Assembly: GCA_030167865.1 (NCBI GenBank)
Contig: JALAGF010003870.1
Location: 1 to 32,029 of the forward strand
Reading direction: 5' to 3'
DNA length: 32,029 nucleotides
Source: Craspedostauros australis
Taxonomy: Eukaryota
A model generated the notes under the pieces. The model searched no databases and was not told the origin of the DNA. It was given only the letters and a program-made list of their open reading frames with translations. Made by a program: the position numbers and the translations under genes. Positions 11,800 to 32,021 of the stretch are shown here, piece after piece. Position 1 is the first letter of the stretch; each line of letters starts with the position of its first letter.

Positions 11800-14724
11800 A
11801 TGGCGACAGGAAGATCGCCGTACCTGACGCGCAGCCGTCGGAGGCAGCAACCACCGCCACCTTCCGCGGCAACCGGCGTCGCATCGCTGCCAACATCGGC
11901 CAACGGGATCCCTGGCATCGACACCTCCAGCATGGACGAGTCGCACGGCTCTTCGTCGCTGTCGCTGTCGTCGTCCTTCGCGAGCCCCACCTTCCGCATG
12001 GGGCAGTCGCTGGTGCAGGCGCGCATCTCTCCTGCGGCTGCCATGGGCACCGTCAGCAGCCACCGTCCCAGACGCTTCTTCGCCACCTCGCCGCGTTCCT
12101 CCACCGCCAAATCGGCGCTGTCCGTCAAGCCCACTACCAATCGCCTCAGCCTCAACGGATCCATCCGACGGACCTTGCCCACCACCACGCCTGGTGCTTC
12201 GTCGGACGGCACCAAGTCATCCCATTCGCATCAGCAGCAGCAACAACATCCGCCCAAATCCATCCTGAGGCCGTTCCCGGAGGGTGCGGACTCGATCATT
12301 GCTGATGAAAATGGCGCCGACCACAACAGTCACAGTCACAACCTCAATGACAACCTCAATGACAATGACAACAACAACGTACATGCTCACATTGATGACG
12401 ATGAGATTGGCAATGAAGAGGTGGTCATCGTGGATGGCATGAATTTGACGCAGCTGCGGCGGTTGGCACGGACATCATTGCAGGGTGGACACTCCACCAC
12501 TGCAGCTCCCTCGATAGCCGTCTTCTACGCCTCGCTTATCTACGCCAAGACCATGGACGCATCCGATGCGTTTCTGTACGCTCAGGCACTGTTTCAGGAC
12601 GGACAGGCCAAGCGTTGCGTGCGTCTGTTGGAGCAATCGGGATTGTTGTTCCCCAACATGCATGAATCCATGGACTTGGCGAGCGGTGTCGCCCTCGACC
12701 AAGGCGGCACCTGCCTCCAGGTTCATCTACTTTCGCTCGAGTCGGTCTTGCTGGCGGCGCAGGCGCTCAAGCTCACGGAAGAATGGACCGTCCTGCTCAC
12801 GTTGCTGGAGGATGCTACTCAGCCATACAGCGGTGCCTACGATACCAGCCATGCAAACGCAAAGGGGAATGCTAATGGATACGCGAACGGGCGTGGCAAC
12901 AGCGTCTCCTTCGCGGCGATGCATAACGCCAACGCCAACGCTAACACCACCATGATCAACAACCGGCTGGAGGACGATGACGACTTGGCATGGAATACAT
13001 GGGCGGCGCTCATACGTGATGCCATGCCCAAAGGCACCATCCACCCGTTGGCGCGTCTCTGCAGCGAACGCGGATTGGCGTATTCCGAGACGGGACATCC
13101 TCTCAGGGCGGCGTCGTACTGGAAGCGCTCCCTCCACATCGATCCCAAGTGCGTGCAGGCGCTCGACCATCTCCTGGACCGCAGCATCATCACCGCGAAT
13201 CAGACCTACCAGATCATCACGGACCTGCACTTCGCGCCGCAGGAACAGTGGTTGAGACGCATGTACCTGGCCAGGATCGATCTGTCGCCGCAGGAACATC
13301 TCGGCAAGCAACTATCCACCACCCTCCCTGACGCCTCTTCCATCCACCTCACGACTCCATCCTTCCAGCAGAGCACGCAGAGGCTCTCCTTCGGCACCGT
13401 CAGCTCCAAATCATTCTTCGGGGATGTTCCTGTCGAGCCGGCAACAGCGCAAGTTGGTGACGACGACAACGACCAGCAGAAGCAACAATCTAACGACGTG
13501 GAATCAGATGCCGTTGCAGCAGTGCCACCAATCCAACGCGACGTGGAAGATGCATTCGAAAAGCTGTGGGATGAGCACAAGTTGCAGAAATCATCTCACG
13601 TACTGGCCATGGCCGCCAGGCGGTCGTACAAGTGCTACGACCTGCAGGACGCCCTGCGTTACTGTCAGGAGCTCTCCGCCGTCGATCCACTGTGCCAAAC
13701 AGCTGGATTCGTCTACGTTTGCGTCTGCATCGCGCTGAAGCGCAAGCGTCTGCTCTTCAAGCTAGCTCACGAATGGGTGGACGCATCGCCCAAGTCAGCC
13801 AGGGCATGGTTCGCTGTGGGTGCCTACTACTACGTCTGCGAACGGTACCATGCGGCGCAGCGGCATTTCTGCCGTGCCACGCGCCTCGACCCGCAATGCA
13901 CAGCGGCGTGGATCGCATTCGGTTGCGCCTTTGCGGCCGTCGATGAGAGCGACCAAGCGCTCGCCAGTTTTCGTGCCGCGCAACGTCTCTCGCCTGGCGA
14001 GCACACCTCCATGCTGTACATCGGAATGGAGTACCTGCGCACCAACCACCTCGTCCTGGCGGATCACTTCCTGTCTGCAGCGCGCACCTACAGCGGCGGC
14101 GATCCTTCCTGCCTCAACGAACTCGGTGTTCTGGCCTACCATCAGCGCGACTACGCCACCGCCATTCGTTGGTTCTGCAAGGCCCTTGCCGCCGTCAATG
14201 CGGCCACCGACTCTGGCAGTCGCGACGAGCCATGCGATATCATCACAGATGCAATTCTTTTGCAGGAGCTCGTCGAGAACAGCAACGACGTGTACTGGGA
14301 ACCAACGCTCTTCAACTTGGCTCAATCCTACAGGAAGCTGGGATACATCGATCTGTCGCTCGTCTGTCTCGATCAATGCCTCGCATTGAATGCGGAATCT
14401 GCTTCCACGTACAGCGCGATTGGATTCAGCAAGCATCTCCAATACGATCTCGACGGTGCCATCGATTACTACCATCAAGCCTTGAGCCGCAAACCCGATG
14501 ACCCATTCTGCACCGAAATGCTGCACCGCGCTTTGCAGGATGCCTTGCACGCCAACCCGGTCGTCGAACAGCAGCAGCAGCAGCAAACCTTTGTCAAAAC
14601 GAACGGATTGCAGCACAAGATCGCGTCGTTGGAGCTGAACAGCGCAGCGACGCCGAAGCAAGAACAGAGCATGATGAGCGAAGGGAATTCGTTGGATACG
14701 GATATGGACATGAGTATGACGTAG
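11800..14724 (+). CDS. CDC16: Anaphase-promoting complex subunit 6 (Cdc16/Cut9), TPR protein
   Basis: Characteristic APC6 TPR segments: LFKLAHEWVDASPKSARAWFAVGAYYY, AWIAFGCAFAAVDESDQALASFRAAQRL, LYIGMEY, LNELGV, WEPTLFNLAQSYRKL, YHQALSRKPDDPFCTEML. Confidence 0.93.
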   Translation: MATGRSPYLTRSRRRQQPPPPSAATGVASLPTSANGIPGIDTSSMDESHGSSSLSLSSSFASPTFRMGQSLVQARISPAAAMGTVSSHRPRRFFATSPRSSTAKSALSVKPTTNRLSLNGSIRRTLPTTTPGASSDGTKSSHSHQQQQQHPPKSILRPFPEGADSIIADENGADHNSHSHNLNDNLNDNDNNNVHAHIDDDEIGNEEVVIVDGMNLTQLRRLARTSLQGGHSTTAAPSIAVFYASLIYAKTMDASDAFLYAQALFQDGQAKRCVRLLEQSGLLFPNMHESMDLASGVALDQGGTCLQVHLLSLESVLLAAQALKLTEEWTVLLTLLEDATQPYSGAYDTSHANAKGNANGYANGRGNSVSFAAMHNANANANTTMINNRLEDDDDLAWNTWAALIRDAMPKGTIHPLARLCSERGLAYSETGHPLRAASYWKRSLHIDPKCVQALDHLLDRSIITANQTYQIITDLHFAPQEQWLRRMYLARIDLSPQEHLGKQLSTTLPDASSIHLTTPSFQQSTQRLSFGTVSSKSFFGDVPVEPATAQVGDDDNDQQKQQSNDVESDAVAAVPPIQRDVEDAFEKLWDEHKLQKSSHVLAMAARRSYKCYDLQDALRYCQELSAVDPLCQTAGFVYVCVCIALKRKRLLFKLAHEWVDASPKSARAWFAVGAYYYVCERYHAAQRHFCRATRLDPQCTAAWIAFGCAFAAVDESDQALASFRAAQRLSPGEHTSMLYIGMEYLRTNHLVLADHFLSAARTYSGGDPSCLNELGVLAYHQRDYATAIRWFCKALAAVNAATDSGSRDEPCDIITDAILLQELVENSNDVYWEPTLFNLAQSYRKLGYIDLSLVCLDQCLALNAESASTYSAIGFSKHLQYDLDGAIDYYHQALSRKPDDPFCTEMLHRALQDALHANPVVEQQQQQQTFVKTNGLQHKIASLELNSAATPKQEQSMMSEGNSLDTDMDMSMT

Positions 14725-14867: not shown

Positions 14868-16460
14868 TCAGTCTGCTACGGACGTGATGACTCCGAAGCC
14901 ACGCGCATGTCCATCACGCAAGATGATGCGCATGCCTTGGCGAACTGGATTGGCATGATGGGAGAACTCGAATGTGACCGTCGCCCTGCCACCCTGATGG
15001 ATCTCATCGGTCGCATCGCCATCATCGTGCTTGACGATGTCGATTACGCGCGCTGCAAGCTTCATGTGCAGGATGTGGACTGTCGCCTCGTAGCAACCCT
15101 TCACGATGGTAACTGTGCGCCCACGCAGCAGGTACACCTCCGCAGTGAACCGTCGATGCGTCAGCACCGGTCCGTCCTTGACGGCGATCATGCCACGACG
15201 CACCGGCACATTCTTCTTGGCGCGCTTCTTATCCGGAAACGACAACGCAAGGCAGGCCGAATGTCCAGCCCAGGCTTCTTTCACATCATTGCGTGCCACG
15301 TGAATCGATCGCACCGTGGCGCGGGTGCTGCCAACCGAGATAGTATCGCCTACGTGAACGCGACCGCGATTCACGAATCCGGAAATGATGTTGCCGTGAA
15401 ATGTGTCTTCCACCAAATATTCGAACGGCTTGTGGATCTTTTTTCCATGCTTGCGACGTTGGGGCAAGGCTCGCAAGAACTTGTGGAGCAGCTCCAGACC
15501 TTCCCCGCTGACTGTGGAGACCGTGAGGATTGGGACGACGGACGATAAAGCAGGAATAGCAACATCGATGTCGGATTCCTTCTTGATACGGTAAGGTCGA
15601 AATCCAATGTCGGGCGATCGCAGCATGCATTGCATGGCTTGGAGGGTAGCTTTGAACACATGCGGGGGGCAGTGGTCGATCTAAAGATATAAAGATGGTG
15701 GAAGCGACAACGGAAATAACGAACGACAAGGGGAGAGCGGGTGATGAAAATGAGACATGGAAAGAGAGACAACGACAAGAGGGAGAGAGAGAGAGAGAGA
15801 GAGAAGGTGCCAACGGTTCGAAACGAGTCAAGCACGTGTGAGACAAAGTATAATCGTCGTGGAAAGACGCTCCAGTACATGCAACTGAATGATGGTCACC
15901 TCAGTGTGCATGGTACAATGCTGCAGCAGAGCAATTGCCGAATAGATTTGGTGTACTCGTACCTTGGTCAATACCACGATGACTGGGATCCCATTGTAGA
16001 TGCACAGATTCAAGTGGTGGAAGGTCATGTGCGTTGGTGGTTGCATGGAGTTGACTAGGACTATGGCATAATCCGCCATTCCACCAGAGATACCGGAGAT
16101 GGTGGTCTTCAGATACTTCTCGTGCCCTGCCATATCCATGAAGGTCACGCAGCATCCTGGTCCTCCGATGACATCGGGTGCTTGCGGTGCCTTGGGACCC
16201 TTCTTCGTCCTTCTTTTCGGCTTGGTTTTGATGTTCACAACAGCACCATCTCCATCGTACTCCACTGTGTGGCTAGTGATACAGGAGGTACGCCCGCTTT
16301 GAAGCTCGTGTGGATGCTTGATGACGAAGGATCGTCCGGATCCCCGTCCATCATCCAATGTTCCCGACGCGATGGTTCCGATCAGGGTTGATTTGCCCGC
16401 ATCGACGTTACCGACTACCGCCACACGGACGTGGCGATTGGACAGCTTCTCCAATGCCAT
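14868..16460 (-). CDS. GTPBP1/GTPBP2-like translational GTPase, 2 coding exons (16460..15963, 15680..14868; 436 aa)
   Basis: G1 VAVVGNVDAGKSTL, LDDGRG..R...KHPHELQSGRTS, G3 DMAGHEKYLKTT, G4 TK|ID formed across the splice junction, G5 VSTVSGEG, followed by EF-Tu-like beta-barrel domains II and III. Confidence 0.88.
15681..15962 (-). other. Spliceosomal intron (282 nt) splitting the TKID motif
   Basis: Minus strand AAG|GTACGA at 15962 and TTTAG|ATCGAC at 15681; phase 0; pyrimidine-rich interior. Confidence 0.88.
15783..15804. repeat. (GA)11 microsatellite within the intron
   Basis: Read directly from the sequence. Confidence 0.9.
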
Positions 16461-18389: not shown

Positions 18390-19171
18390 TAGATACAAAT
18401 ACCTGTTCTAACATGACAGATGTCCACACACACATTGATCTTTGTTGAAATGTTCGGGTGCTGTAGACTTGTTGGTAAAAGTAGACTGTTTCTGTTGAGG
18501 GTTGGTAACCTTTTCTCTGTCAGTATTATGAGCTATTCTATTTCCGATTCTGCTCTCTCTCTCTGCTGCTCTGCTTATCATGGTCTCATGTTGTACATCA
18601 GCCACTGTGCTGATCTTATCTTGTGTATCCATGTTGCTTCCGTATATAGAGCAATCCCATTCGTATTGGGACCCATGGCGCATTCATCTGTGATTCTATC
18701 TTGCTCACAGATTGCAATGTTGATGTTCCGAATCTGAACACATAAGGACACATATGGGGAGTCCTCCAATGTCAAGGTGTATGCAAGTGTCATGTTCAAT
18801 CTTGCATTCTGCACACCGGGGTAAAGTATTGAGACCACTACATTCGGTCACAGTTTCGGTTGTGGTACAGACACACGGTTCATCTGACCTCCGCTAGTTT
18901 TCAGTCTCGATTCGAGTCCCGCCTTCGTCTGGTGGGTGATGTCACAGATCCTGTTCAATGGTTTTACTCGTACCAGTCGGGGCTTCTCGCTTTCAACGAT
19001 GCCACACAACGGAACTCTGTTGTTGTGGGAACGTGTCTCCATTCTTCTTTCCTTCTTTCTTCTTGTTGTCCACGCGCATTTTCGTGATGGATGGGAACAG
19101 AAGGATCCAAACCACACGAATCAGAAGGGTGCGATCAAGAGAAGGAAACAACACAGGTAACCACAAAGAGC

Positions 19172-19187
19172 GAGAGAGAGAGAGAGA
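19172..19187. repeat. (GA)8 microsatellite upstream of the ankyrin gene
   Basis: Read directly from the sequence. Confidence 0.85.
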
Positions 19188-19424
19188 ACATCATGCGAAC
19201 AAGACAACAACACACACCACTCAACCACAGACTCGAGCACATCAACAACAGACACCGAATTGCCACGCATACTAATATTCATCACACAGTGCATGGTACT
19301 CATCCAAATACAAGCTATTGAAGACACACAATCGATATCTCTGCCATAGGTAGCTCGGACTGCACACTTCCTCGACAGCCAATCCAACGCCAATCGTCCA
19401 GCGACCGTCGACCGTCCTCTCAAA

Positions 19425-22400
19425 ATGCCGAATGTTACGAACGAACAACTCCTTGATGCTGCCAAGGCAGGTAACTTGTCAGTGTTGAAGGAATGGAAGA
19501 AGCAGAACAAGATGCAGAATGAAGGAGTTGATGCCAACTGCAACGACAGCGACGGTTCCACTCCCCTTCATGTGGCATGCCGCAACGGCCACCTGGAGAG
19601 TGTGAAGTACCTCATCGAATCATGTGAGGGCAACATCAACTGCAAAGACAACAATGGAAACACTCCCCTTCATCAAGCATGCCGCAACGGCCACCTGGAG
19701 TGTGTGAAGTGCCTCATTGAATCATTTGAGGCAGACATCAACTGCAAAAACAAAGATGGCGACACTCCCCTTCATTGGGCATGCATGAATGGCCACCTGG
19801 AGTGTGTGAAGTACCTCATCCAATCATGTGAGGCGGACATCAACTGCAAAAACAACCATGGTTGGACTCCCCTTCATCACGCATTCCGCGACGGCCAGCT
19901 GGAGTGTGCCAAGTACCTCATCGAATCATGTGAGGCGAACATCAACTGCCAAAACAACCTTGGTTCCACTCTCCTTCATGTGGCTTGCTTCAACGGCCAG
20001 CTGGAGTGTGTGAAGTACCTCATTGAATCATGTGAGGCAAACATCAACCGGAAAGACAACCATGGTTCCACTCCCCTTCATCAAGCATGCCACAATGGCC
20101 ACCTGGAGTGTGTGGAGTACCTCATTGAATCATTTGAGGCGAACATCAACTGCAAAGACAACCATGGTTCCACTCCCCTTCATCGGGCATGCCACGAAGG
20201 CCAGCTGGAGTGTGTGAAGTACCTCATCGAATCATGTGGAGCGCAGATCGACTGCAAAGCCAACGATGGAAGCACTTCCCTTCATCAGGCATGCATGGAC
20301 GGCCACATGGAGTGTGTGAAGTACTTCATCGAATCATGCAAGGCGAACATCAACTGCAAAGACAACAATGGAAACACTCCCCTTCATGTGGCATGCATAA
20401 ACGGCCAGCTCAAGTGTGTGGAGTACCTCATTGAATCATGTGAGGCAAACATCAACAGCAAAATCTACGATGGTTTCACTCCCCTTCACTGGGCATGCCG
20501 CAACGACGACCTGAAGTGTGTGAAGCACCTCATCATATCATGTGGGGCGACCATCGACGGCAAAGACACAATTGGAAACACTCCCCTTCATATTGCATGC
20601 GGCACCCGCCAGCTGGAGTGTGTGAAGTACCTCATCGAATCATGTGAGGCGAACATCAACTGCCAAAACAACAATGGTTGGACTCCCCTTCATCAAGCAT
20701 GCCGCAACGGCCACCTGGAGTGTGTCAAGTATCTCATTGAATCATGTGAGGCAGACATCAACTGCAAAAACAAAGATGGCGACACTCCTCTTCATTGGGC
20801 ATGCATGAATGGCCACCTGGAGTGTGTGAAGTACCTCATCCAATCATGTGAGGCGGACATCAACTGGAAAGACGACCTTGGTTGGACTCCCCTTCATATG
20901 GCATGCTTCAACGGCCAGCTGGAGTGTGCCAAGTACCTCATCGAATCATGTGAGGCGAACATCAACTGCGAAGACAACCATGGTTGGACTCCCCTTCATG
21001 TGGCATGTCACACCGGCCAGCTGGATTGTGTGAAGTACCTCATCGAATCATGTGAGGTGAACATCAACTGCCAAAACACCCTTGGTTCCACTCCCCTTCA
21101 TCACGCATTCCGCTACGGCCACCTGGAGTGTGTGAAGCACCTCATCCAATCATGTGAGGCGGACATCAACTGCAAAGACCACCTTGGTTGGACTCCCCTT
21201 CATGAAGCATGCCGCACCGGCCACCTGGAGTGTGTCAAGTATCTCATTGAATCATGTGAGGTGAACATCAACTGCGAAGACAACAATGGTTGGACTCCCC
21301 TTCATCATCCATGCTTGTGTGGCCAGCTGGAGTGTGTGAAGTACCTCATCGAATCATGTGATGCGAACATCAACTGGAAAGACAAAGATGGCGACACTCC
21401 CCTTCATATTGCATGCCGCGCCAGCCAGCTGGAGTGTGTGAAGTACCTCGTCGAATCATGTGAGGCGGACATCAACTGCAAAAACAACCATGGTTGGACT
21501 CCCCTTCATATTGCATGCAGTAACGGCCACCTGGAGTGTGTGAAGTACCTCATCCAATCATGTGAGGGGAACATCAACTGCGAAGGCAACGATGGTTCCA
21601 CTCCCCTTCATGGGGCATGCTTCAACGGCCAGCTCAAGTGTGTGAAGTACCTCATCGAATCATGTGAGGTGAACATCAACTGCCAAAACAACCATGGTTG
21701 GACTCCCCTTCATCACGCATTCCGCGACGGCCAGCTGGAGTGTGCCAAGTACCTCATCGAATCATGTGAGGCGAACATCAACTGCCAAAACAACCTTGGT
21801 TCCACTCTCCTTCATGTGGCTTGCTTCAACGGCCAGCTGGAGTGTGTGAAGTACCTCATTGAATCATGTGGGGCGACCATCAACGGCAAAGACACAATTG
21901 GAAACACTGCCGTTCATGTGGCATGCATAAACGGCCACCTGGTGTGTGTGAAGTACCTCATTGAATCATGTGAGGCGAACATCAACTGCAAAGACAACCA
22001 TGGTTCCACTCCCCCTCATGGGGCATGCTTCAACGGCCACCTGGAGTGTGTGAAGTACCTCATCCAATCATGTCAGGCGAACATCAACTGGAAAGACAAC
22101 AATGGAAACACTCCCCTTCATGTGGCATGCTTCAACGGCCACCTGGAGTGTGCCAAGTACCTCGTTGAATCATGTGAGGCGGACATCAACTGCGAGGACA
22201 CAATTGGAAACACTCCCCTTCATATTGCATGCCGCGCCAACCACCTGGAGTGTGTGAAGTACCTCGTCGAATCATGTGAGGCGAACATCAACTGCAAAAA
22301 CAACCATGGTTGGACTCCCCTTCATTACACATACCACGAAGGCCACCTGGAGTGTGCCAAGTACCTCGTCGAATCATGTGATGCGAACATCAACTGCAAA

Positions 22401-25400
22401 AACAAAGATGGCGACACTCCCCTTCATCGGGCATGCGGTAACGGCCAGCTGGAGTGTGCCAAGTACCTCGTCGAATCATGTGATGCGAACATCAACTGCA
22501 AAGACAACAATGGAAACACTCCCCTTCATCACGCATGCAGTAACGGCCAGCTGGAGTGTGTGAAGTACCTCATCGAATCATGTGAGGCGGCCATCAACCG
22601 GAAAGACAACAATGGTTCCACTCTCCTTCATGGGGCATGCTTCAACGGCCAGCTGGAGTGTGTGGAGTACCTCATCCAATCATGTGAGGCGGACATCAAC
22701 TTGAAAGACGAGCTTGGTTGGACTCCCCTTCATCAAGCATGCCGCAACGGCCACCTGGAGTGTGTGAAGTGCCTCATTGAATCATTTGAGGCGGACATCA
22801 ACTGCAAAAACAAAGATGGCGACACTCCCCTTCATTGGGCATGCATGAATGGCCACCTGGAGTGTGTGAAGTACCTCATCCAATCATGTGAGGCGGACAC
22901 CAACTGCGAAGACGACCTTGGTTGGACTCCCCTTCATTACGCATGCCACGAAGGCCACCTGGAGTGTGTCAAGTACCTCGTCGAATCATGTGAGGCGAAC
23001 ATTAACTGCGAAGGCAACGATGGTTGGACTCCCCTTCATGTGGCATGCCACACCGACCAGCTGGATTGTGCCAAGTACCTCGTTGAATCATGTGAGGTGA
23101 ACATCAACTGCCAAAACAACCTTGGTTCCACTCTCCTTCATCACGCATTCCGGGACGGCCACCTGGAGTGTGCCAAGCACCTCATCCAATCATGTGAGGC
23201 GGACATCAACTGGAAAGACCACTTTGGTTGGACTCCCCTTCATTACGCATGCCACGACGGCCAGCTGGAGTGTGTGAAGTACCTCATCCAATCATGTGAG
23301 GCGAACATCAGCTGCCAAGATGAGCTTGGTTGGACTCCCCTTCATTTGGCATGCGACAACGGCCACCTGGAGTGTGTGAAGTACCTCATTGAATCATTTG
23401 AGGCAGACATCAACTGCAAAAACAAAGATGGCGACACTCCCCTTCATTGGGCATGCATGAATGGCCAGCTGGAGTGTGCCAAGTACCTCATTGAATCATG
23501 TGAGGCGGACATCAACTGCAAAAACAACGATGGTTGGACTCCCCTTCATTTGGCATGCAACAACGGCCGCCTGGAGTGTGTGAAGTACCTCATCGAATCA
23601 TGTAAGGCGGACATCAACTGCAAAAACAACTATGGTCACACTCCCCTTCATAAAGCATGGCACAACGGCCAGCTGGAGTGTGTGAAGTACCTCATAGAAT
23701 CATGTGAGACGAACATCAACTGCAAAGACAAAGATGGCGACACGCCCCTTCACTACGCATGCTGCCATGGCCACCTGGGGTGTGTGAAGTACCTCATCGA
23801 ATCATGTGAGGCAAACATTAACTGCGAAGACGACAATGGAAACACTCCCCTTCATGTGGCATGCCACAATGGCAAGCTGGAGTGTGTGAAGTACCTCATC
23901 GAATCATGTGAGGCGAACATCAACTGCCAAAACAACCATGGTTCCACTCCCCATCATGCGGCATGCCGCAATGGCCAGCTGGAGTGTGCCAAGTACCTCA
24001 TCGAATCATGTGATGCGAACATCAACTGCAAAGACAAAAATGGTTGGACTCCCCTTCATCACGCATGCCACAACGGCCACCTGGAGTGTGTGAAGTGCCT
24101 CATTGAATCATGTAAGGCGGACATCAACTGCAAAAACAACTATGGTCACACTCCCCTTCATAAGGCATGCCACAACGGCCGCCTGGAGTGTGCCAAGTAC
24201 CTCGTCGAATCATGTGAGGCGAACATCAACTGCAAAGACAAAAATGGTTGGACTCCCCTTCATCACGCATGCCACAACGGCCGCCTGGAGTGTGTGGAGT
24301 ACCTCATCGAATCATGTGAGGCGAACATCAACTGCAAAGACAACCATGGTTGGACTCCCCTTCATCACGCATTCCGCGACGGCCAGCTGGAGTGTGCCAA
24401 GTACCTCATCGAATCATGTGAGGCGAACATCAACTGCAAAGACAAATATGGTTGGACTCCCCTTCATCACGCATGCCGCAATGGCCACCTGGAGTGTGTG
24501 AAGTACCTCATTGAATCAGGTGAAGCGGACATCAACTGCAAAGACAACGATGGTTCCACTCCCCTTCATGTGGCATGCGGCAACGGCCACCTGGAGTGTG
24601 TGAAGTACCTCATTGAATCATGTGAGGCGAACATCAATTGCAAAAATGACGATGGTGACACTCCCCTTCATTGGGCATGCCACGAAGGCCACCTGGAGTG
24701 TGTGAAGTACTTCATCGAATCATGTGAGGCGGACATCAACTGGAAAGACGACCTTGGTTGGACTCCCCTTCATCAAGCATGCCACGAAGGCCACCTGGAG
24801 TGTGTGAAATACCTCATTGAATCATGTGAGGCGAACATCAACTGGAAAGACGAAGATGGAAACACTCCCCTTCATCACGCATGCTGCAAAGGCAAGCTGG
24901 AGTGTGTGAAGTACCTCGTCGAATCACGTGAGGCGGACATCAACTGGAAAGACAAAGATGGTTGGACTCCCCTTCATATTGCATGCCACGAAGGCCACCT
25001 GGAGTGTGTGAAGCACCTCGTCGAATCACGTGAGGCGGACATCAACTGGAAAGACAAAGATGGTTGGACTCCCCTTCATATTGCATGCCACGAAGGCCAC
25101 CTGGAGTGTGTGAAGCACCTCATCGAATCATGTGAGGCGACTATCAACTGCAAACACAACCGTGGTTCTGTTCCCCTTCATTGGGCATGCAACAATGGCC
25201 AGCTGGAGTGTGTGAAGTACCTCATTGAATCATGTGAAGCGAACATCAACTGGAAAGACAAAGATGGTTGGACTCCCCTTCATCACGCATGCCACGAAGG
25301 CCAGCTGGAGTGTGTCAAGTACCTAATTGAATCATGTGGGGCGAACATCTACTGCAAAGACAATGCTGGTTGGACCCCCCTTCATGTGGCATGCCGCAAT

Positions 25401-26759
25401 GGCCAGCTGGAGTGTGTGAAGTACCTCATCGAATCATGTAAGGCGGACATCAACTGCAAAGACAACCATGATTGGACTCCCCTTCATTGGGCATGCATGA
25501 ACGGCAAGCTGGAGTGTGTGAAGTACCTCATCCAATCATGTGGGGCGAACATCAACTGCAAAGACAACAATGGAAACACTCCCCTTCATTTGGCATGCCG
25601 CAACGGCAAGCTGGAGTGTATCGAGTACCTCATCAAATCAGCCGATGCCGATATCGACATCCAAAACAACTACAACAAAACCCCCCTCGATTTGATCGAT
25701 GCAGACCTTGACGCCAAATTCAAGAGATTGATCATTAACCGTCACAGGCACCACAACCCACAACCGCAACAACACTTACAACAAAACAAGCAAAAGAATA
25801 AACAACCACAACAACAGTTGAGACAGCAGTTGAAGCGGAAGAAGCAAGAGAATGAACACAAACACAGCAGCCACAAGAGGACCAACATCAGCATCGGAAA
25901 AGACCGGCTCAGATCCTTCCAAACCGAGAACAGGGCAGACACCATCTTCTTGTGTGGACAGGGCGACGACAAACAACCAATCAAGGCAAACGCTGAAGTC
26001 CTCATGGTCACCGTCCCATCCATTGAGACACTGATCAGCTCTGGAATCCAACATCAGCACGCGAATGATGGCACCGAAGACGGCGCGCCCCCCATGCAAG
26101 CAACTGTCCCTCTTCCCAACCTTCAACCAAAACATGTCCGATACGTCCTTCAATGCATCTACACAGGCGAGATATCCTTCAATGACAGTGCTCGTGATGA
26201 CGCTGCTGCGCACGTCGGTGCTCACACTGACGCTCAACACGATGTAGATGCTTCTCACCAGTCAACTCCCATCCTCACTGGACAGGATGATCTGCAACAG
26301 CTGATCCTTGTGACCGACCTGTTCGGCTTCTGGCGACTCAAGCTTGTTCTTGAAGCAGAGTTGGCCCGCAAGCATCTCACAGAGGACACCATGATAGATG
26401 CGTTGATATTCGCCCATCAACACAACTGCGTGGTGTTGAGGGATGCAGCAATGAGAGTGGCAGCTGAAAGTGAGAAAGATTTGTTCATTCATCCAGATTT
26501 CAAGAAGCTGATTCTACAACCCCAACTGATGGGAGACATTCATGTCCTCCGCAGTGGGGAAGCGGAGAGTGATGGTATTGATGATGAGTACAGCCACATG
26601 TCCATGGTGAAGCTGTACAAGGTTATAGATGAGGATGAGGGTACAGCACAAGTGGATTCATACATGGATCGGGCAACATTGGTGGACTTCGTCCGCTCTA
26701 TGAGTACCAAATCATCCAAAGTGAATGAGACGGACGGCGCTGCTGAAGAAGCGGAGTGA
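19425..26759 (+). CDS. Giant ankyrin-repeat protein (60 repeats) with C-terminal BTB/POZ-BACK-like domain (2444 aa)
   Basis: N-cap LLDAAKAGNL; 60 x 34-aa GxTPLHxACxxG(H/Q)LECVKYLIESCEA(N/D)INCKDxx; C-cap NKTPLDLI; Q/K-rich linker; then ADTIFLCG..IKANAEVL..PLPNLQPKHVRYVLQCIYTG..LILVTDLFGFWRLKLVLEAEL..DALIFAHQHNCVVLRDAAM (BTB + BACK-like). Confidence 0.93.
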   Translation: MPNVTNEQLLDAAKAGNLSVLKEWKKQNKMQNEGVDANCNDSDGSTPLHVACRNGHLESVKYLIESCEGNINCKDNNGNTPLHQACRNGHLECVKCLIESFEADINCKNKDGDTPLHWACMNGHLECVKYLIQSCEADINCKNNHGWTPLHHAFRDGQLECAKYLIESCEANINCQNNLGSTLLHVACFNGQLECVKYLIESCEANINRKDNHGSTPLHQACHNGHLECVEYLIESFEANINCKDNHGSTPLHRACHEGQLECVKYLIESCGAQIDCKANDGSTSLHQACMDGHMECVKYFIESCKANINCKDNNGNTPLHVACINGQLKCVEYLIESCEANINSKIYDGFTPLHWACRNDDLKCVKHLIISCGATIDGKDTIGNTPLHIACGTRQLECVKYLIESCEANINCQNNNGWTPLHQACRNGHLECVKYLIESCEADINCKNKDGDTPLHWACMNGHLECVKYLIQSCEADINWKDDLGWTPLHMACFNGQLECAKYLIESCEANINCEDNHGWTPLHVACHTGQLDCVKYLIESCEVNINCQNTLGSTPLHHAFRYGHLECVKHLIQSCEADINCKDHLGWTPLHEACRTGHLECVKYLIESCEVNINCEDNNGWTPLHHPCLCGQLECVKYLIESCDANINWKDKDGDTPLHIACRASQLECVKYLVESCEADINCKNNHGWTPLHIACSNGHLECVKYLIQSCEGNINCEGNDGSTPLHGACFNGQLKCVKYLIESCEVNINCQNNHGWTPLHHAFRDGQLECAKYLIESCEANINCQNNLGSTLLHVACFNGQLECVKYLIESCGATINGKDTIGNTAVHVACINGHLVCVKYLIESCEANINCKDNHGSTPPHGACFNGHLECVKYLIQSCQANINWKDNNGNTPLHVACFNGHLECAKYLVESCEADINCEDTIGNTPLHIACRANHLECVKYLVESCEANINCKNNHGWTPLHYTYHEGHLECAKYLVESCDANINCKNKDGDTPLHRACGNGQLECAKYLVESCDANINCKDNNGNTPLHHACSNGQLECVKYLIESCEAAINRKDNNGSTLLHGACFNGQLECVEYLIQSCEADINLKDELGWTPLHQACRNGHLECVKCLIESFEADINCKNKDGDTPLHWACMNGHLECVKYLIQSCEADTNCEDDLGWTPLHYACHEGHLECVKYLVESCEANINCEGNDGWTPLHVACHTDQLDCAKYLVESCEVNINCQNNLGSTLLHHAFRDGHLECAKHLIQSCEADINWKDHFGWTPLHYACHDGQLECVKYLIQSCEANISCQDELGWTPLHLACDNGHLECVKYLIESFEADINCKNKDGDTPLHWACMNGQLECAKYLIESCEADINCKNNDGWTPLHLACNNGRLECVKYLIESCKADINCKNNYGHTPLHKAWHNGQLECVKYLIESCETNINCKDKDGDTPLHYACCHGHLGCVKYLIESCEANINCEDDNGNTPLHVACHNGKLECVKYLIESCEANINCQNNHGSTPHHAACRNGQLECAKYLIESCDANINCKDKNGWTPLHHACHNGHLECVKCLIESCKADINCKNNYGHTPLHKACHNGRLECAKYLVESCEANINCKDKNGWTPLHHACHNGRLECVEYLIESCEANINCKDNHGWTPLHHAFRDGQLECAKYLIESCEANINCKDKYGWTPLHHACRNGHLECVKYLIESGEADINCKDNDGSTPLHVACGNGHLECVKYLIESCEANINCKNDDGDTPLHWACHEGHLECVKYFIESCEADINWKDDLGWTPLHQACHEGHLECVKYLIESCEANINWKDEDGNTPLHHACCKGKLECVKYLVESREADINWKDKDGWTPLHIACHEGHLECVKHLVESREADINWKDKDGWTPLHIACHEGHLECVKHLIESCEATINCKHNRGSVPLHWACNNGQLECVKYLIESCEANINWKDKDGWTPLHHACHEGQLECVKYLIESCGANIYCKDNAGWTPLHVACRNGQLECVKYLIESCKADINCKDNHDWTPLHWACMNGKLECVKYLIQSCGANINCKDNNGNTPLHLACRNGKLECIEYLIKSADADIDIQNNYNKTPLDLIDADLDAKFKRLIINRHRHHNPQPQQHLQQNKQKNKQPQQQLRQQLKRKKQENEHKHSSHKRTNISIGKDRLRSFQTENRADTIFLCGQGDDKQPIKANAEVLMVTVPSIETLISSGIQHQHANDGTEDGAPPMQATVPLPNLQPKHVRYVLQCIYTGEISFNDSARDDAAAHVGAHTDAQHDVDASHQSTPILTGQDDLQQLILVTDLFGFWRLKLVLEAELARKHLTEDTMIDALIFAHQHNCVVLRDAAMRVAAESEKDLFIHPDFKKLILQPQLMGDIHVLRSGEAESDGIDDEYSHMSMVKLYKVIDEDEGTAQVDSYMDRATLVDFVRSMSTKSSKVNETDGAAEEAE
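19554..25673 (+). repeat. Coding tandem array of 60 x 102-bp units
   Basis: The conserved CTT(CAT) lies at 19566 in unit 1 and at 25584 in unit 60; the difference 6018 = 59 x 102, so there are no net indels. Confidence 0.95.
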
Positions 26760-27062
26760 AGTACCATGCCATATTATGCCATAACAGAAGTCTTCGAGAA
26801 GTAAACGCATGACAGAATTGAGATGATGAAAAGAGGACTCGAGTCAGTTGTTGGAGGGAGAGTATTCACAATCAGACTGCGAATGGCAATTACATATTCT
26901 ATTGAGTAGCGTTATGTATTCTACACCACAAAAAGAAACGGCCACAGCGGGCAATTGTGACCTGCACAACCAGACAAGATCGCTTCGCTCCCATCATGCG
27001 AGTTGGTGATCACATGCTTGCTGAGCGACTCATTCAACTTCAATCCGTTGCACCATCCACCT

Positions 27063-28316
27063 TCACATGGGTGGATGTCCACGTGCCTCTTCCAGTCGTT
27101 GCTTCGCCTTCACCAATTGCGTCTTGAGATCTAGTTGCCGAACGCGGATATCCTGGCAGATCCGCTCGAGCTTCGCCACCCGGAGCTTGTGCTCAAGCAT
27201 TTTAATCTTCTTTGTCTTCCGCTTGTGCTGAGACGATGACCTGTCGTGTTGTGGATTGGTGTTGGTGCTGTCGGTGCTGTTGATGCTGTTGGAACCACGA
27301 GAATGAAGATTCGGACGATGATCTGGAAGAGAAGGAGCGCGGCGAGTTTCAGCAGTACTGACATCATTGGACGATGCGACTTCATCCGCAACAACAATAT
27401 CGTCAGCGATATCATCATTGGTAGCACTGTGGATGTAAGCGGATCCTGTTTCATTGCTGGTTGACCGGGTTCTCCGCTTCCGCTTCTTTGATCGGATGCG
27501 GATCCTCATACAGTGATACCCGAGATGTTTCTGTTCCTTTTCATCGTCTCCGTGGTCACGAGCGATAGCGCCATCGTTCCTGTCGCTACCGTTGTTGCCG
27601 TCACTTTCGCATAAGGACTCGTTGCCGTCATCATTTGGGGGAATGGGAGTGCTCCCGTCATCTTGTTTTTTGTCATCGTCGCTCCCGTCGCCGCTCTCAT
27701 CTTCGGTTTCGTCTTCTCTCTCCTCGTCACTGTCGTCGGAGCATTGGTCGTCGTGACAGCGGGGCGCACTTGTGGGGAACTCCGTGCCCGTCTTTGCGGA
27801 GATGGGTGAAGGCCTCGGCGATGGTCGCAGGCTGGATTCGGGAGAGATAGGGGCTTGTGACGATCTCTCAGCAAGCTGGGGAGCGTCCTTCAGCACCTTC
27901 CAACAAGCCGTGAGTATCTCGACGCTGAGAGAACGGTTTTCGCGCTCCGTCTTGTGTGCTTGGCACCAATCTGCAATCCATCGCACTTCGGCTTCTTCCG
28001 ACATGTGCGGAGTCGATGAGTGATGTTCTCGAAGTTGGAGGACAGGGCGCCAGATTCTGTTGAAGAAGGCTCCGGGACTGTATTGGTTTGAATGGGGGGA
28101 TATGTGGACATTAGATGCTGCTTCATCATTGTTGGTGTCGCCTTTGCTTGCGAGCTTTCCATCCAATTCTTGGTTGTATTGGTCGATGCTCTGGTTGAAC
28201 ATCTTCAAGATGAGGGGCCAACGTCGATACCCACGCTTGAGTGGTTCCTTATTTACTTCCAACAAGGTGAGGCAAAGAAACCGCGCTTTCGTTGGAGTCC
28301 AGCCAAGAGGCAGCAT
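27063..28316 (-). CDS. Myb/SANT-like + NAM-associated-like protein, paralog 1 of 3 (417 aa)
   Basis: MLPLGWTPTKARFLCLTLLEV..WPLI..ACWKVLKDAPQLA, acidic D/E tract, NLS-like KKRKRR, C-terminal coiled coil KLRVAKLER. Start chosen by alignment to the other paralogs. Confidence 0.75.
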   Translation of the reverse strand: MLPLGWTPTKARFLCLTLLEVNKEPLKRGYRRWPLILKMFNQSIDQYNQELDGKLASKGDTNNDEAASNVHISPHSNQYSPGAFFNRIWRPVLQLREHHSSTPHMSEEAEVRWIADWCQAHKTERENRSLSVEILTACWKVLKDAPQLAERSSQAPISPESSLRPSPRPSPISAKTGTEFPTSAPRCHDDQCSDDSDEEREDETEDESGDGSDDDKKQDDGSTPIPPNDDGNESLCESDGNNGSDRNDGAIARDHGDDEKEQKHLGYHCMRIRIRSKKRKRRTRSTSNETGSAYIHSATNDDIADDIVVADEVASSNDVSTAETRRAPSLPDHRPNLHSRGSNSINSTDSTNTNPQHDRSSSQHKRKTKKIKMLEHKLRVAKLERICQDIRVRQLDLKTQLVKAKQRLEEARGHPPM

Positions 28317-28918
28317 CGTGAAGGAGTGGTTTTGTACTGTTTGAGTGTCTCCTTTGATGCTATGCGTTGTTCTATGATCGACGATGGCGCTGGCTCTTGT
28401 TTCGTGGGTGCAGTTGCGAGCGATGAAGACGAAGCAGAAGAGAGGAAGTTTGAACGCCAGTCTTCTGAAAAGGTCAAGTTGGAAGATCAACGCAGCGATT
28501 GGTGTGCGATGCCTCTCTGTTGCTTCTTCTGCTTCTGTTGCTGTGTCCGTTATGATCGACGATGGAAGTCAAGTATCGATCCTGATGTGACTTTCTGCCG
28601 ATGTGCGTGGTACGTCTCATCGATGGAAATTTGCATTTGTGGAGAGGGAGGTATCTGCGCCGACTTCCGCAAACTCGACAAGCATTCACGAAACATCATG
28701 CGCTAGCTAGTGCACGATGATATCCAGAGGTCTCAACAGGAAAGAGATGGTCGCATGTCCATGCAAACTGTGATCTGTTCCATTATTCCCTTCGGAATGT
28801 CCACCCACCTGAAATTGGCACCACCAATCGGATCCTGCATACACATGCATTCTCCAATTTCCCCATTGCTCCATCTCTCGATCCATCCACGCATGTGAAA
28901 GTTCGACACCTAATGACT

Positions 28919-30190
28919 TCAAGCCGAGCGATTGCGATGTGCCTCCTCCATTTCTTTCTTCGCCTCAGCAACCTGAAGCTTCAGATTGAGTTCCTGCAGG
29001 CGCAGATCGTGATAGTTGCGCTTAAGCTTGGTAAGCCGGAGTTCCTCGCGAATCGTGTCCATCTCCTCGCTGCCTTGGAGCGCCTTGGGTGGTGTGCTTC
29101 TTGCGGAGTCTCGGTCTTCTGTTCGCGTGGCTTGCGCTGTTTCTGAACGCACCTGCGGCGTGCCGTCTGTGTTGTCACGACGGTGTCCGCGATGCTGGCG
29201 ACGACGACGATACCTGACTGTTTTGGCAACGCCATTGCCGTCTCCGGCTGCGTCGCCGTTTTCCACATGGGCGCTATCATCCGTGTTGCCGTCCTCCGCA
29301 TCGTTATTGAGGACGACAAGCGTGCTCCTGTCAGCATCTACGGATACGCCACGATGCTTGCGTTTGCGCGATGGGGTATACCCAGTCGCAGTCGCAGGCT
29401 GTTGGTCATTGGATCCTCGCATCTGGATGGCGCTGTCGTTGTCGTTGTCGCTGCTGCTCTCCGTGTTCTCGTAGCTGGTGACAGTAGCAGGCGCGTACTC
29501 GTTGTCGTCGTCGTCGTCATCCGGATTGTATTGATCGTCCCCGCTCGTTCTGACGGAATTGTCTCCGTCTTCGCTTGCATGATCGCCGTCAGTCTCACCA
29601 TGAGGGGATGAGCCTTGATGGTCGCAACGGTTTCGAGCGCGGACTGATGCCGCGACTGATTTGCGTGCGAGGAGGCGAAAAGGTCGAAGTGTGAGTTGTG
29701 GATAGGACTGAGCAAAGGCAGGTGAGGAAGCATCTGCAATTTGCGGCGCGTCCTTCAGGAGTCTCCAGCACTCCACGAAGGCGTGGATGTTGAGGCGAGA
29801 GTGTCTGGATCTTTTGTGCCACGATTCGCGCCAATCTGCGATCCATTGGAATTCAGCTTCCTGCGAAGTGTGAGGTGTTGGCGGAAGATGCTTTCGAAGT
29901 TGCAGAGTGGAATGCCGGACGGTGCCGAAGATGCGTCTGAGACTATCTGCAGAAACCGTGCATGCGAGGTCATCGCAATCATCGCCGAAGTCGCTGTTGT
30001 TTCTGTCGGCGTTTCCTCTGTTCGCTCTCTCTATTGCCATCCGTTCGTTGTACTGCGCGATGCGGCGCTTGAAATTCTCAAAAATGAGAGACCAAGTTCC
30101 GCTTTTGCATATGCCTGGTCCCTTCTTGATTTCCAGGTAGGCGAGGCAAAGCATCCTCGCTTTCGCCGGAGTCCAGGAAGGTTGCGTCAT
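28919..30190 (-). CDS. Myb/SANT-like + NAM-associated-like protein, paralog 2 of 3 (423 aa)
   Basis: MTQPSWTPAKARMLCLAYLEIKKGPG..GTWSLIFENF..SADSLRRIFGTV..FVECWRLLKDAPQIA, acidic tract, PSRKRKHR, ELRLTKLKRNYHDLRLQELNLKLQV. Confidence 0.78.
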   Translation of the reverse strand: MTQPSWTPAKARMLCLAYLEIKKGPGICKSGTWSLIFENFKRRIAQYNERMAIERANRGNADRNNSDFGDDCDDLACTVSADSLRRIFGTVRHSTLQLRKHLPPTPHTSQEAEFQWIADWRESWHKRSRHSRLNIHAFVECWRLLKDAPQIADASSPAFAQSYPQLTLRPFRLLARKSVAASVRARNRCDHQGSSPHGETDGDHASEDGDNSVRTSGDDQYNPDDDDDDNEYAPATVTSYENTESSSDNDNDSAIQMRGSNDQQPATATGYTPSRKRKHRGVSVDADRSTLVVLNNDAEDGNTDDSAHVENGDAAGDGNGVAKTVRYRRRRQHRGHRRDNTDGTPQVRSETAQATRTEDRDSARSTPPKALQGSEEMDTIREELRLTKLKRNYHDLRLQELNLKLQVAEAKKEMEEAHRNRSA

Positions 30191-30767
30191 TTTAGAGAAG
30201 AAGTGAGAATGTGCTGTGTGAGTATTGGCGGTGACGATATTCCATGGACTGCCCTTGGACTCTTCGCTCAAGCTTTGGTGCAGTGTCTGCTGTTGTGTTG
30301 GATTTGGTGACGCTGGATGGTGTTGTTGTGTGCCTGGCCTCCTGGTTGGAGTTGATGGGCGACTTTGTGGGGAGGGGATGCGTGGATCTTCTGGTGATGC
30401 CAAAAGATACGGTTGCACTCGATTGAGTCAATCGCAGTGATTTGGATGGAGGTGGCTTTCTCGATGAGAACCTCTCTCTGGTCAGAGAGGGCTGGTGTGG
30501 CGGAACCACAAACGAGACCGACAATACCATTCATCTGTGCAACAGATGCTCTCTCATTCCATCAACGAACCCAAACGTTGCATGCATCTCATCGCTTGGC
30601 TCGGCACAGCGAGTGATAACTTCATTCATCTAATATTTGCAAGAGAGGTCAGGGGCTTTATCTGAACGCTGTGCGAGTTGAGGATAGCGTGTGGCGCTGG
30701 TCTGTATACGCCGTGACTTCATTCCTTCATTTGTTCATGCATATGCAACGATCGACATCTATATCCT

Positions 30768-32021
30768 TCAAATCGTTCGATCACCACGAGCTTCTTCCAC
30801 TTCTTTCTTCGCCCTCTCGACCTGGAGCTTGAGGATGAGTTCTTGAATGCGCAGTTCGTGGTAGTTGCGCTCAAGTTTAGCTACCCGGAGCTGTTCGCGG
30901 AGCAACTTGGTATGCTTGCGGTCATGCAACGCTTGAGGCAACGTGATCGTTGCAGTTTCCATTGGCGTTGTCCTTTTTGTTGGCTTTAGGCGCCTGAGTG
31001 GATAGGCGTTGCCATTCATGTCGTTGTGGAGGTGTTGATACCGACGACGTGTGCGCTTTGGTCTTGGATCGTCCCTGATTTCGTCGGCGCTCTCCACGTT
31101 GATATCATCGTCTGTGTTGCTGTCCATGTCATCGCTGTCGACGACGGCGCGCGTGTTGGAATGACATGTGCCGGGATCTGCAGATACGCGACGACGCTTG
31201 CGCTTCCGCGATGGGGCGCGAACAGTCGCACGCCGTCGGTCTATGAATTGCCGAGTGGGATTTCCGCTGCTGTATACGGTGGGCCTCGCGTTGCCGCCGT
31301 CGTCGTCGCGACTCGTGATTTTGTTGGGTCTGTTGGGGGCTATAGACGCATCCTCCTCCTCCTCTTCTTCATCTTCGTCATCGTCACCGGTATTACCTGC
31401 GTCGTCATCTTCGTTGCTATCATCGCTATCAAGTTCATGATCTGCGTGTTGACTGTCGCGACGGCCGATGGCACAGGCAGATGTTTTGGTACATTTGCGC
31501 GCGATGAGGCGAACTACCCGATGCGTTGGCTGTGGATTGCATCTGGAGGCAGCTGAAGAATCATCTGCAATTTGCGGAGCGTCTTTCAAGATCCTCCAGC
31601 ACTCCAACAGTAAGTTGCTGTGCAAACCCACGCTCGCGCCTCTGGCTGCGTATGATTGGTGCCAACGGTCGACCCACTGAGCTTCTTGCTTTCTGGATTT
31701 GTGAGGGTTCGGCGGACGCACTTTTCGGAGATCGAGGATGGTGCACCGGATCTTGCTGAATATCCTTCGATACCGCGCGGTGTCGTGAACGCATGAGATC
31801 TTCTTGATATCGCCTGCTGATGCCGCAGAGTTTTTGCGTGCGCGTGCACCCTTTGCATGCTTCCTTGCGACTCTCCTGTTGTGTGCCTGGATGGCTTTCT
31901 TCATGTTCCGTGAAATGAGGGGCCAGGTTCCTTTTTCGCACCTCCCTGGTCCTTTGACCACCTTCAAGAATTCAAGGCACAGCATCCGCGCTTCCTCGGC
32001 AGTCCAGAAAGTACGCCGCAT
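30768..32021 (-). CDS. Myb/SANT-like + NAM-associated-like protein, paralog 3 of 3 (417 aa)
   Basis: MRRTFWTAEEARMLCLEFLKVVKGPG..GTWPLI..LLECWRILKDAPQIA, acidic tract, PSRKRKRRR, QLRVAKLERNYHELRIQELILKLQV. Confidence 0.78.
   Translation of the reverse strand: MRRTFWTAEEARMLCLEFLKVVKGPGRCEKGTWPLISRNMKKAIQAHNRRVARKHAKGARARKNSAASAGDIKKISCVHDTARYRRIFSKIRCTILDLRKVRPPNPHKSRKQEAQWVDRWHQSYAARGASVGLHSNLLLECWRILKDAPQIADDSSAASRCNPQPTHRVVRLIARKCTKTSACAIGRRDSQHADHELDSDDSNEDDDAGNTGDDDEDEEEEEEDASIAPNRPNKITSRDDDGGNARPTVYSSGNPTRQFIDRRRATVRAPSRKRKRRRVSADPGTCHSNTRAVVDSDDMDSNTDDDINVESADEIRDDPRPKRTRRRYQHLHNDMNGNAYPLRRLKPTKRTTPMETATITLPQALHDRKHTKLLREQLRVAKLERNYHELRIQELILKLQVERAKKEVEEARGDRTI

Follow-up and report, generated by a model that had tools for sequence, protein, structure and literature searches.

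A 60-unit ankyrin array with a variable groove and a predicted BTB tail in the diatom Craspedostauros australis

What kind of protein is encoded by a gene that repeats one ankyrin (ANK) unit 60 times, holds the framework of that unit nearly constant down to its silent sites, and lets a few positions change freely? This question is raised by the longest open reading frame (ORF) of contig JALAGF010003870.1 in the Craspedostauros australis assembly GCA_030167865.1, of which positions 1 to 32,029 were analyzed (hereafter, the window). The ORF, located at 19425..26759 on the forward strand (+), encodes 2444 amino acids (aa). An earlier interpretation, made from the DNA letters without database searches (the sequence-only reading), had described it as an ankyrin array that is hypervariable mainly at the binding face and fused to a BTB domain acting as a Cullin-3 adaptor. 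The observations of that reading were confirmed, and its interpretation was partly supported. We are confident that the gene belongs to a small family of diatom ANK-BTB genes that is specific to its lineage, and that it is a hugely expanded representative of that family. The best explanation as a whole, in which this giant family member carries an amplified and diversified array and serves as a Cullin-3 adaptor, stands in our estimate at about an even chance.

A giant gene in a small ANK-BTB family

The gene is a single-exon ORF in which 60 ANK units are followed by a linker, a BTB domain and a helical tail, and both of its ends match those of family relatives: the N-terminus, MPNV..EQLL..AA, agrees with relative P0163, and the C-terminus with P0002 and P0003. 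Tandem Repeats Finder reported the array at 19535-25640 as the only one, with a period of 102, 59.9 copies, 82% matches, 0% indels, and a score of 7138. When the register was cut from nucleotide 19542, the sequence resolved into 60 consecutive units of 34 aa and 102 base pairs (19542..25661, +), flanked by an N-terminal cap and a C-terminal half-repeat, in line with the number of repeats first proposed. A Pfam scan covering residues 1-272 and the C-terminal 404 aa of the protein detected Ank_2 at 349 bits (E 2e-106) and Ank at 253 bits in the former, passing the gathering threshold for ankyrin repeats (PF00023/PF12796). Helix pairs recur every 34 residues in the AlphaFold (AF2) model of the repeats, as is expected of ankyrin periodicity, and the top sequence matches among solved structures were ankyrin-1 (E 1.4e-115) and NOMPC (E 4.9e-105). 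The unit is one residue longer than the canonical 33, and the HMMER alignments to ankyrin-1 put the insertion behind helix 2. Neither of the two scanned portions contained a NACHT or NB-ARC NTPase domain according to Pfam, and since the intervening ~1770 aa consist of regular 34-aa ANK units, there is no space for such a domain.

Could the array be an artefact of assembly, either mis-assembled or inflated? Assembling a 6-kb tandem repeat is difficult, and a single assembly was used here. However, no two of the 60 units share a nucleotide or a protein sequence; they differ from one another by a mean of 18 of 102 nucleotides, which gives each unit its own address. The reading frame is also perfect, and the caps, linker, and tail are collinear with those of the relatives. 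We therefore regard an artefact as extremely unlikely.

The family was delineated from the last 365 residues of the protein (the tail). A comparison with 1.84 billion representative proteins yielded 39 matches at E <= 0.001, the ten best of which had E values of 1.9e-92 to 5.3e-31. The best full-length relatives are 434-607 aa long. Among 17 relatives scanned with Pfam, eight combined ANK with BTB (434-607 aa), five combined MATH with BTB (some with BACK), and four had BTB without ANK or MATH. All seven relatives that carry a taxon name come from Craspedostauros australis, a raphid pennate diatom, and the others are marine records. The giant protein is collinear with the family throughout, from the N-cap, through the 34-aa ANK units, C-cap, linker, and BTB, to the conserved C-terminal helices. 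In the small ANK-BTB proteins (P0003-P0011, P0018, and P0163), the N-cap motif recurs together with the framework LHxACxxGxLxxVKYLVESCxAxVN and its period of 34 residues, and tail identities to the giant protein are 34-77%. They differ from it in their repeats: the small proteins carry about 1-9, ordinary members 3-9, with a framework that varies between repeats, whereas the giant gene carries 60, with a near-identical framework. In the giant gene, an internal ANK unit of a small ANK-BTB gene has been amplified in frame to 60 copies.

Several of the shared elements lie outside the array. The N-terminal cap (19425..19541, +) is a family-conserved segment of 39 aa with two helices in the AF2 model (residues 6-15 and 18-28), and homologous N-termini are present in P0003, P0008, P0018, and P0163. 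On the other side of the array, a family-shared capping half-repeat, QNNYNKTPLDL... (25662..25730, +), forms helix 8-31 in the tail model. Alignment A2, which comprises the nine closest relatives, is conserved from this C-cap through the C-terminus. The intervening linker (25731..25886, +) is of low complexity in translation, rich in Gln, Lys, and His, and modeled with a predicted local distance difference test score (pLDDT) of 47-59. It includes a basic KRKK cluster which, judged by the consensus, is a possible nuclear-localization signal.

The closest relative, P0163 of Craspedostauros australis (366 aa), shares 77% identity in the tail and has the same N-cap and MPNV..EQLL, with about one ANK unit and without the C-cap. 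It is either a truly short paralog or the product of a repeat array that collapsed when transcripts were assembled from short reads. The 39 tail matches, none of which exceeds 1004 aa, include no family member longer than 607 aa, and comparing the tail with longer proteins (640-2000 aa) also returned no family member; this absence is weak evidence, because repeat-rich genes assemble poorly. DNA of relatives was not detected in metagenome contigs, either via the tail or via alignment A2.

In run X1, a public sequencing run whose kind (RNA or DNA) was guessed, 1235 contigs matched positions 19000-27500: 246 at a likeness of at least 99%, 409 at 95-99%, and 580 at 90-95%. Twenty-two contigs lie over the N-terminal site 19473, and up to 24 lie over single tail sites within 26415-26610. 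In the flanks, the contigs show 3-15 other letters each, indicating that X1 stems from a relative or another strain. The mapping is ambiguous, as 466 of the 1235 contigs can be placed in two positions and the 12 joints listed are indistinguishable from mis-mapping within repeats. The stacking of contigs at single sites hints at many close variants of the ANK-BTB family in a related organism.

Constant framework and variable groove

The mean pairwise identity between units is 82% at the nucleotide level and 68% at the amino-acid level (amino-acid range 41-97%), and the six most variable positions alone give 51 distinct signatures. Ranked by amino-acid entropy, the leading unit positions are 11 (3.28 bits, with 13 types of residue), 14 (2.79), 4 (2.58), 3 (2.11), 6 (2.10), and 15 (1.98). 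In a single-sequence AlphaFold model (pLDDT 72), helix 1 spans unit positions 8-14 and helix 2 spans positions 18-27. The variable positions 3, 4, and 6 thus map to the preceding beta-turn, 11 and 14 to helix 1, and 15 directly after it, while helix 2 is near-constant, with entropies of 0.0-0.89 bits. This agrees with the placement of the variation in the hairpin and helix 1 by the sequence-only reading, whose list of residues following the helix-1 His was also correct, with Ala as a further type. The reading had further noted that multi-nucleotide variation is concentrated at these codons. Indeed, codon pairs differ by 2-3 nucleotides in 5143 of 10620 comparisons at the six variable codons, as opposed to 2300 of 49560 at the other 28.

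When the units are renumbered canonically (Asp = 1), the five most variable positions become 10, 13, 3, 2, and 5, and the sixth becomes 14. The positions randomized in DARPins, reportedly 2, 3, 5, 13, 14, and 33 in the 2003 design of Binz and colleagues, include this sixth position. The correspondence with a second design, the ANK-N5C library, is exact for the first five: as described in PMC4308713, positions 2, 3, 5, 10, and 13 have high entropy in natural ANK repeats and were randomized to create a continuous binding surface over the beta-turn and helix 1. The proposed overlap with designed binders therefore holds. Designed ankyrin binders contain 2-5 repeats with a uniform residue mix, whereas the diatom protein is natural, with 60 repeats of 34 aa and a mix that is biased toward N, H, D, W, and R. 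The units are also rich in Cys (3.6 per unit) and His (2.3 per unit), a composition for which a metal site was considered, with Cys occupying small-hydrophobic positions of the canonical ANK repeat.

Outside the variable positions, the codons are nearly invariant even at silent sites, as had been observed from the letters. Ser27, for example, is encoded by TCA in 60 of 60 units. We considered codon bias as the cause of this invariance and ruled it out, since the same amino acid has different fixed codons at different positions. Glu19 is GAG (53/53) and Glu26 is GAA (48/48); Cys13 and Cys34 are TGC (52/53 and 44/44), and Cys20 and Cys28 are TGT (59/59 and 51/52); Leu9 is CTT (57/57), Leu18 is CTG (57/59), and Leu24 is CTC (57/58). 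A fixed codon that tracks the position rather than the amino acid points to common descent or homogenization of the framework. Identity between units is flat along the array, at 82-84% for each lag from 1 to 40 units, so that over these lags there is no gradient of local duplication, and only six block-duplicated runs were found, each of 2-3 units. Neighboring variable positions co-vary, suggesting that some unit "types" are inherited together. The unit copies have thus kept the fold-determining framework down to its silent sites and diverged quickly at the beta-turn and helix-1 positions of the concave groove.

The pace of this divergence was estimated in two ways. In pairwise comparisons by the method of Nei and Gojobori (NG86), the non-synonymous divergence (dN) was 0.82 at the six variable codons, compared with a synonymous divergence (dS) of 0.156 and a dN of 0.111 at the other 28. 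On a tree built with FastTree, counting by parsimony gave 341 non-synonymous and 82 synonymous changes, corresponding to 10.07 non-synonymous changes per non-synonymous site at the variable codons and 3.34 synonymous changes per synonymous site in the framework. Taking both estimates together, the variable codons show non-synonymous divergence 3 to 5 times as high as the synonymous divergence of the framework.

The predicted BTB tail and the Cullin-3 question

A putative recognition surface of this kind raises the question of what the remainder of the protein does. The BTB/POZ domain occupies tail residues ~76-240 (25887..26381, +), where Pfam BTB (PF00651) scored 23.0 bits, narrowly above its cut-off of 20.5 (E 9.2e-5, nucleotides 25917-26192). 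The AlphaFold model of the tail, based on 18 sequences, has a pLDDT of 76 overall and 81-96 in the core, with two low-confidence insertions within the domain at tail residues ~131-140 and ~171-200. A Foldseek search with this model returned 51 matches in the PDB at E <= 0.001, with SPOP (8dwv_B, E 5.7e-7; 4j8z_B, TMt 0.79) ranked ahead of KEAP1, NPR1, KLHL11, and KBTBD2-CUL3, so that the tail is predicted to adopt a BTB fold. The SPOP/BPM type of MATH-BTB adaptor is its best fold match, at a sequence identity of 14-17%. Among the 17 scanned relatives, 14 reach the BTB cut-off, at 22.3-66.2 bits; P0014 (23.4) and P0015 (22.3) are among those that pass, and P0002 (19.5) and P0020 (17.9) fall under it.

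The domain is followed by a predicted helical extension resembling a 3-box or BACK region (tail helices 244-297; 26391..26552, +), modeled at pLDDT 85-96. The tail model aligns with full-length SPOP over 223 columns, and the confident helices that follow the BTB align with it as well. Among the relatives, P0013 alone passes for BACK (PF07707, 26.2 vs 20.9 bits); P0020 scores 21.3 bits on PF07707, and P0021 scores 26.1 bits on BACK_BPM_SPOP, under its cut-off of 27.4. The protein ends with family-specific conserved helices, DDEYSxMSM..LY...SYMDR..L..FVRS (26605..26723, +; helices 315-324 and 337-354), in which D308, M313, Y319, R337, and R345 are invariant in alignment A2.

Based on these features, we propose that the 60 units would form a long superhelical solenoid whose groove presents many different binding patches. 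By analogy with SPOP/BPM, the SPOP-like BTB/3-box tail would dimerize and recruit a Cullin-3 ligase, and proteins captured by the array would be ubiquitinated. MATH-BTB proteins are Cullin-3 adaptors, according to PMC3519589, and MATH-BTB(-BACK) proteins are the next sequence relatives of the tail beyond the ANK-BTB family. In SPOP/BPM the substrate module is MATH, whereas in the diatom gene it would be the ANK array, with diversity both between the repeats of one gene and between paralogs. The diversity of the groove may be kept by selection for many or changing targets and renewed by unequal crossing-over and duplication of short unit blocks. A related pattern has been described in the MATH-BTB and F-box families of C. 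elegans, where, in PMC4334554, positive selection is reported in the substrate-binding and not the cullin-binding domain and an immune role is proposed. We rate a Cullin-3 adaptor mechanism with diversifying selection at slightly less than an even chance.

Several results weigh against this mechanism. On the side of the tail, the BTB score exceeds its cut-off by only 2.5 bits, a phmmer search of the tail alone against solved structures returned no BTB, and BACK_BPM_SPOP scores 14.7 bits in the tail, below its threshold of 27.4. Accordingly, of the BTB-BACK pair claimed in the sequence-only reading, the BTB is supported by Pfam and by the predicted fold, and the case for the BACK is weaker. On the side of selection, the whole-unit ratio dN/dS is 1.01 by pairwise NG86 and 1.03 on the tree. 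The sequence-only reading had named a ratio at or below 1 as grounds for abandoning it; the whole array shows such a ratio, and the binding-face codons, when compared with the silent sites of the framework, do not. Constraint on the framework is weak (omega 0.58-0.84), and within-codon binomial tests identified no codon at p < 0.05, the best values being 0.057, 0.066, and 0.075. Furthermore, recombination among units violates the tree, which is approximate, and inflates the counts at variable sites. Finally, since P0163 has about one ANK unit, the expansion to 60 may be recent, with its functional importance unproven.

The overall dN/dS, the weak framework constraint, the lack of a significant per-codon test, and the nearest relative with about one unit would all fit a recent and largely neutral tandem amplification of a small ANK-BTB gene, by slippage or unequal crossing-over, in which the variable positions are those that the fold tolerates and the extra repeats are functionless. 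The variable positions are, moreover, the same as the most variable ones of unrelated natural ANK repeats. However, neutral sites cannot outpace silent sites, yet the dN of the variable codons exceeds the framework dS severalfold. Tolerance of the fold should also extend to the outer helix: canonical positions 22, 25, and 26 are described in PMC4308713 as rather variable in natural repeats and unlikely to bind, yet they are quiet in the array (pN 0.094, 0.139, and 0.0). A version of this explanation with old variable cassettes and a homogenized framework is ruled out by the conserved codons that are interleaved with the variable ones (5, 7-10, 12, 13, and 16), which have the lowest silent rate, 1.66 against 4.44 synonymous changes per synonymous site, indicating that the variable half of the unit is not simply older. 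In addition, 15 of the 306 possible one-nucleotide substitutions in the consensus unit yield a stop codon, so that 6.9 stops would be expected from the 140 distinct variants, and none was seen (P ~0.001); nor are there indels anywhere across the 6.1-kb array. While the array has remained open and folded, change at its groove positions has outpaced that at silent sites, and we consider neutral amplification very unlikely.

A different possibility is that the protein degrades nothing and acts as a scaffold or spring, with the solenoid as a structural or multi-partner docking platform comparable to NOMPC or the membrane-binding domain of ankyrin and the BTB serving for oligomerization only, with no Cullin-3. 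The best solved matches of the repeats, ankyrin-1 and NOMPC, speak for such a role, as does BTBD11, described in abstracts as an ANK-BTB synaptic scaffold, and nothing in the present analysis shows ligase recruitment. Long ANK arrays are also common: when residues 1-280 were compared with proteins, 7515 of 8000 scored candidates (1344-4277 aa) matched at E <= 1e-20. Many of these matches carry Roc GTPase domains, some named entries are described as STAND NTPase-containing, and none of the matches listed contained PF00651 (best identity 50%). A purely structural role, however, leaves unexplained why the groove diverges 3-5 times as much as silent sites while the rest is held, and the nearest sequence and fold relatives of the tail outside its own family are the MATH-BTB/SPOP adaptors. 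We view the scaffold as unlikely, though less so than neutral amplification.

Precedents, genomic neighborhood, and significance

The closest evolutionary analogue of the gene, the internally conserved ANK repeats of fungal NLRs, has already been described: in Dyrka et al. 2014 (PMC4986451), fungal ANK, TPR, and WD repeats have a conserved framework, evolve in concert, vary in number, and are hypervariable or positively selected on the concave face, at the beta-hairpin and inner helices. The diatom array resembles these in its tandem layout, conserved framework, and concave-face variability. It differs from them in its partner, since fungal NLRs carry a NOD (NACHT or NB-ARC) domain and in the diatom gene we see a BTB and neither of these. 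It also falls short, at 68%, of the fungal repeat criterion given there, which asks that repeats be at least 85% identical in amino acids across 100 aa or more, and its 60 repeats compare with 7 to more than 16 in fungal NLRs, the largest number cited being 21. Long uninterrupted ANK solenoids are known in ankyrin-R/B (24 repeats) and in NOMPC (a 29-repeat spring); unlike the diatom protein, they consist of old repeats that are conserved one by one, and they lack a BTB. The parallel drawn by the sequence-only reading with variable LRR/TPR receptors of brown algae exists in the literature (PMC3341825). Our literature search found no description of an ANK-BTB array or recognition system in diatoms. 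The gene thus brings together two known themes, the ANK-BTB adaptor and the hypervariable repeat with internal conservation, in a whole whose function we infer.

The genes that surround the array are ordinary nuclear genes. At 4755-7667 (+) lies a 971-aa reductase whose two tandem Flavodoxin_1 domains precede FAD_binding_1 and NAD_binding_1; diflavin reductases do not usually contain such a doubled flavodoxin module. A 770-aa protein at 7935-10247 (-) has an M12 reprolysin-like metalloprotease domain and Thr/Pro-rich stretches. In the genome paper of Seminavis, M12B-domain and BTB families are among those that respond to sexual reproduction (PMC7335047). The 974-aa TPR protein at 11800-14721 (+), with an ANAPC3 match and long low-complexity N-terminal insertions, is probably a subunit of the anaphase-promoting complex. 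An ORF at 14868-15635 (-) matches only domains 2 and 3 of EF-Tu and is probably one exon of a split GTPase gene, suggesting that this genome has introns, though the ANK-BTB gene has none. Downstream of the latter, three ORFs at 27063-28490, 28919-30418, and 30768-32021 (all on the reverse strand; 475, 499, and 417 aa) had no Pfam match at E <= 0.001.

Diatoms rank among the major primary producers, and viruses, oomycetes, chytrids, and algicidal bacteria attack them. To our knowledge, no intracellular immune receptors have been described in the diatom lineage. A role of the gene product in non-self recognition is plausible. A more specific proposal is a germline "binder library on one polypeptide". 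It would serve the diatom as an intracellular surveillance receptor whose 60 shuffling units, each with a groove patch of its own, would deliver a foreign protein (of a virus, parasite, or bacterial effector) or a mating-type protein to Cullin-3 ubiquitination; we consider this proposal distinctly unlikely. What the gene does offer is the signature of a recognition module, a constant scaffold with a hypervariable groove, joined to the predicted fold of a ubiquitin-ligase adaptor, making it a concrete and testable candidate for target-directed degradation in diatom defense or mating, the latter in view of the BTB families of Seminavis. The array also constitutes a natural experiment on the length limits of the ankyrin solenoid and offers protein engineers groove sequences that were naturally selected. 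If the surveillance proposal were true, diatoms would have built repeat-based hypervariable recognition on an E3 adaptor instead of an NLR.

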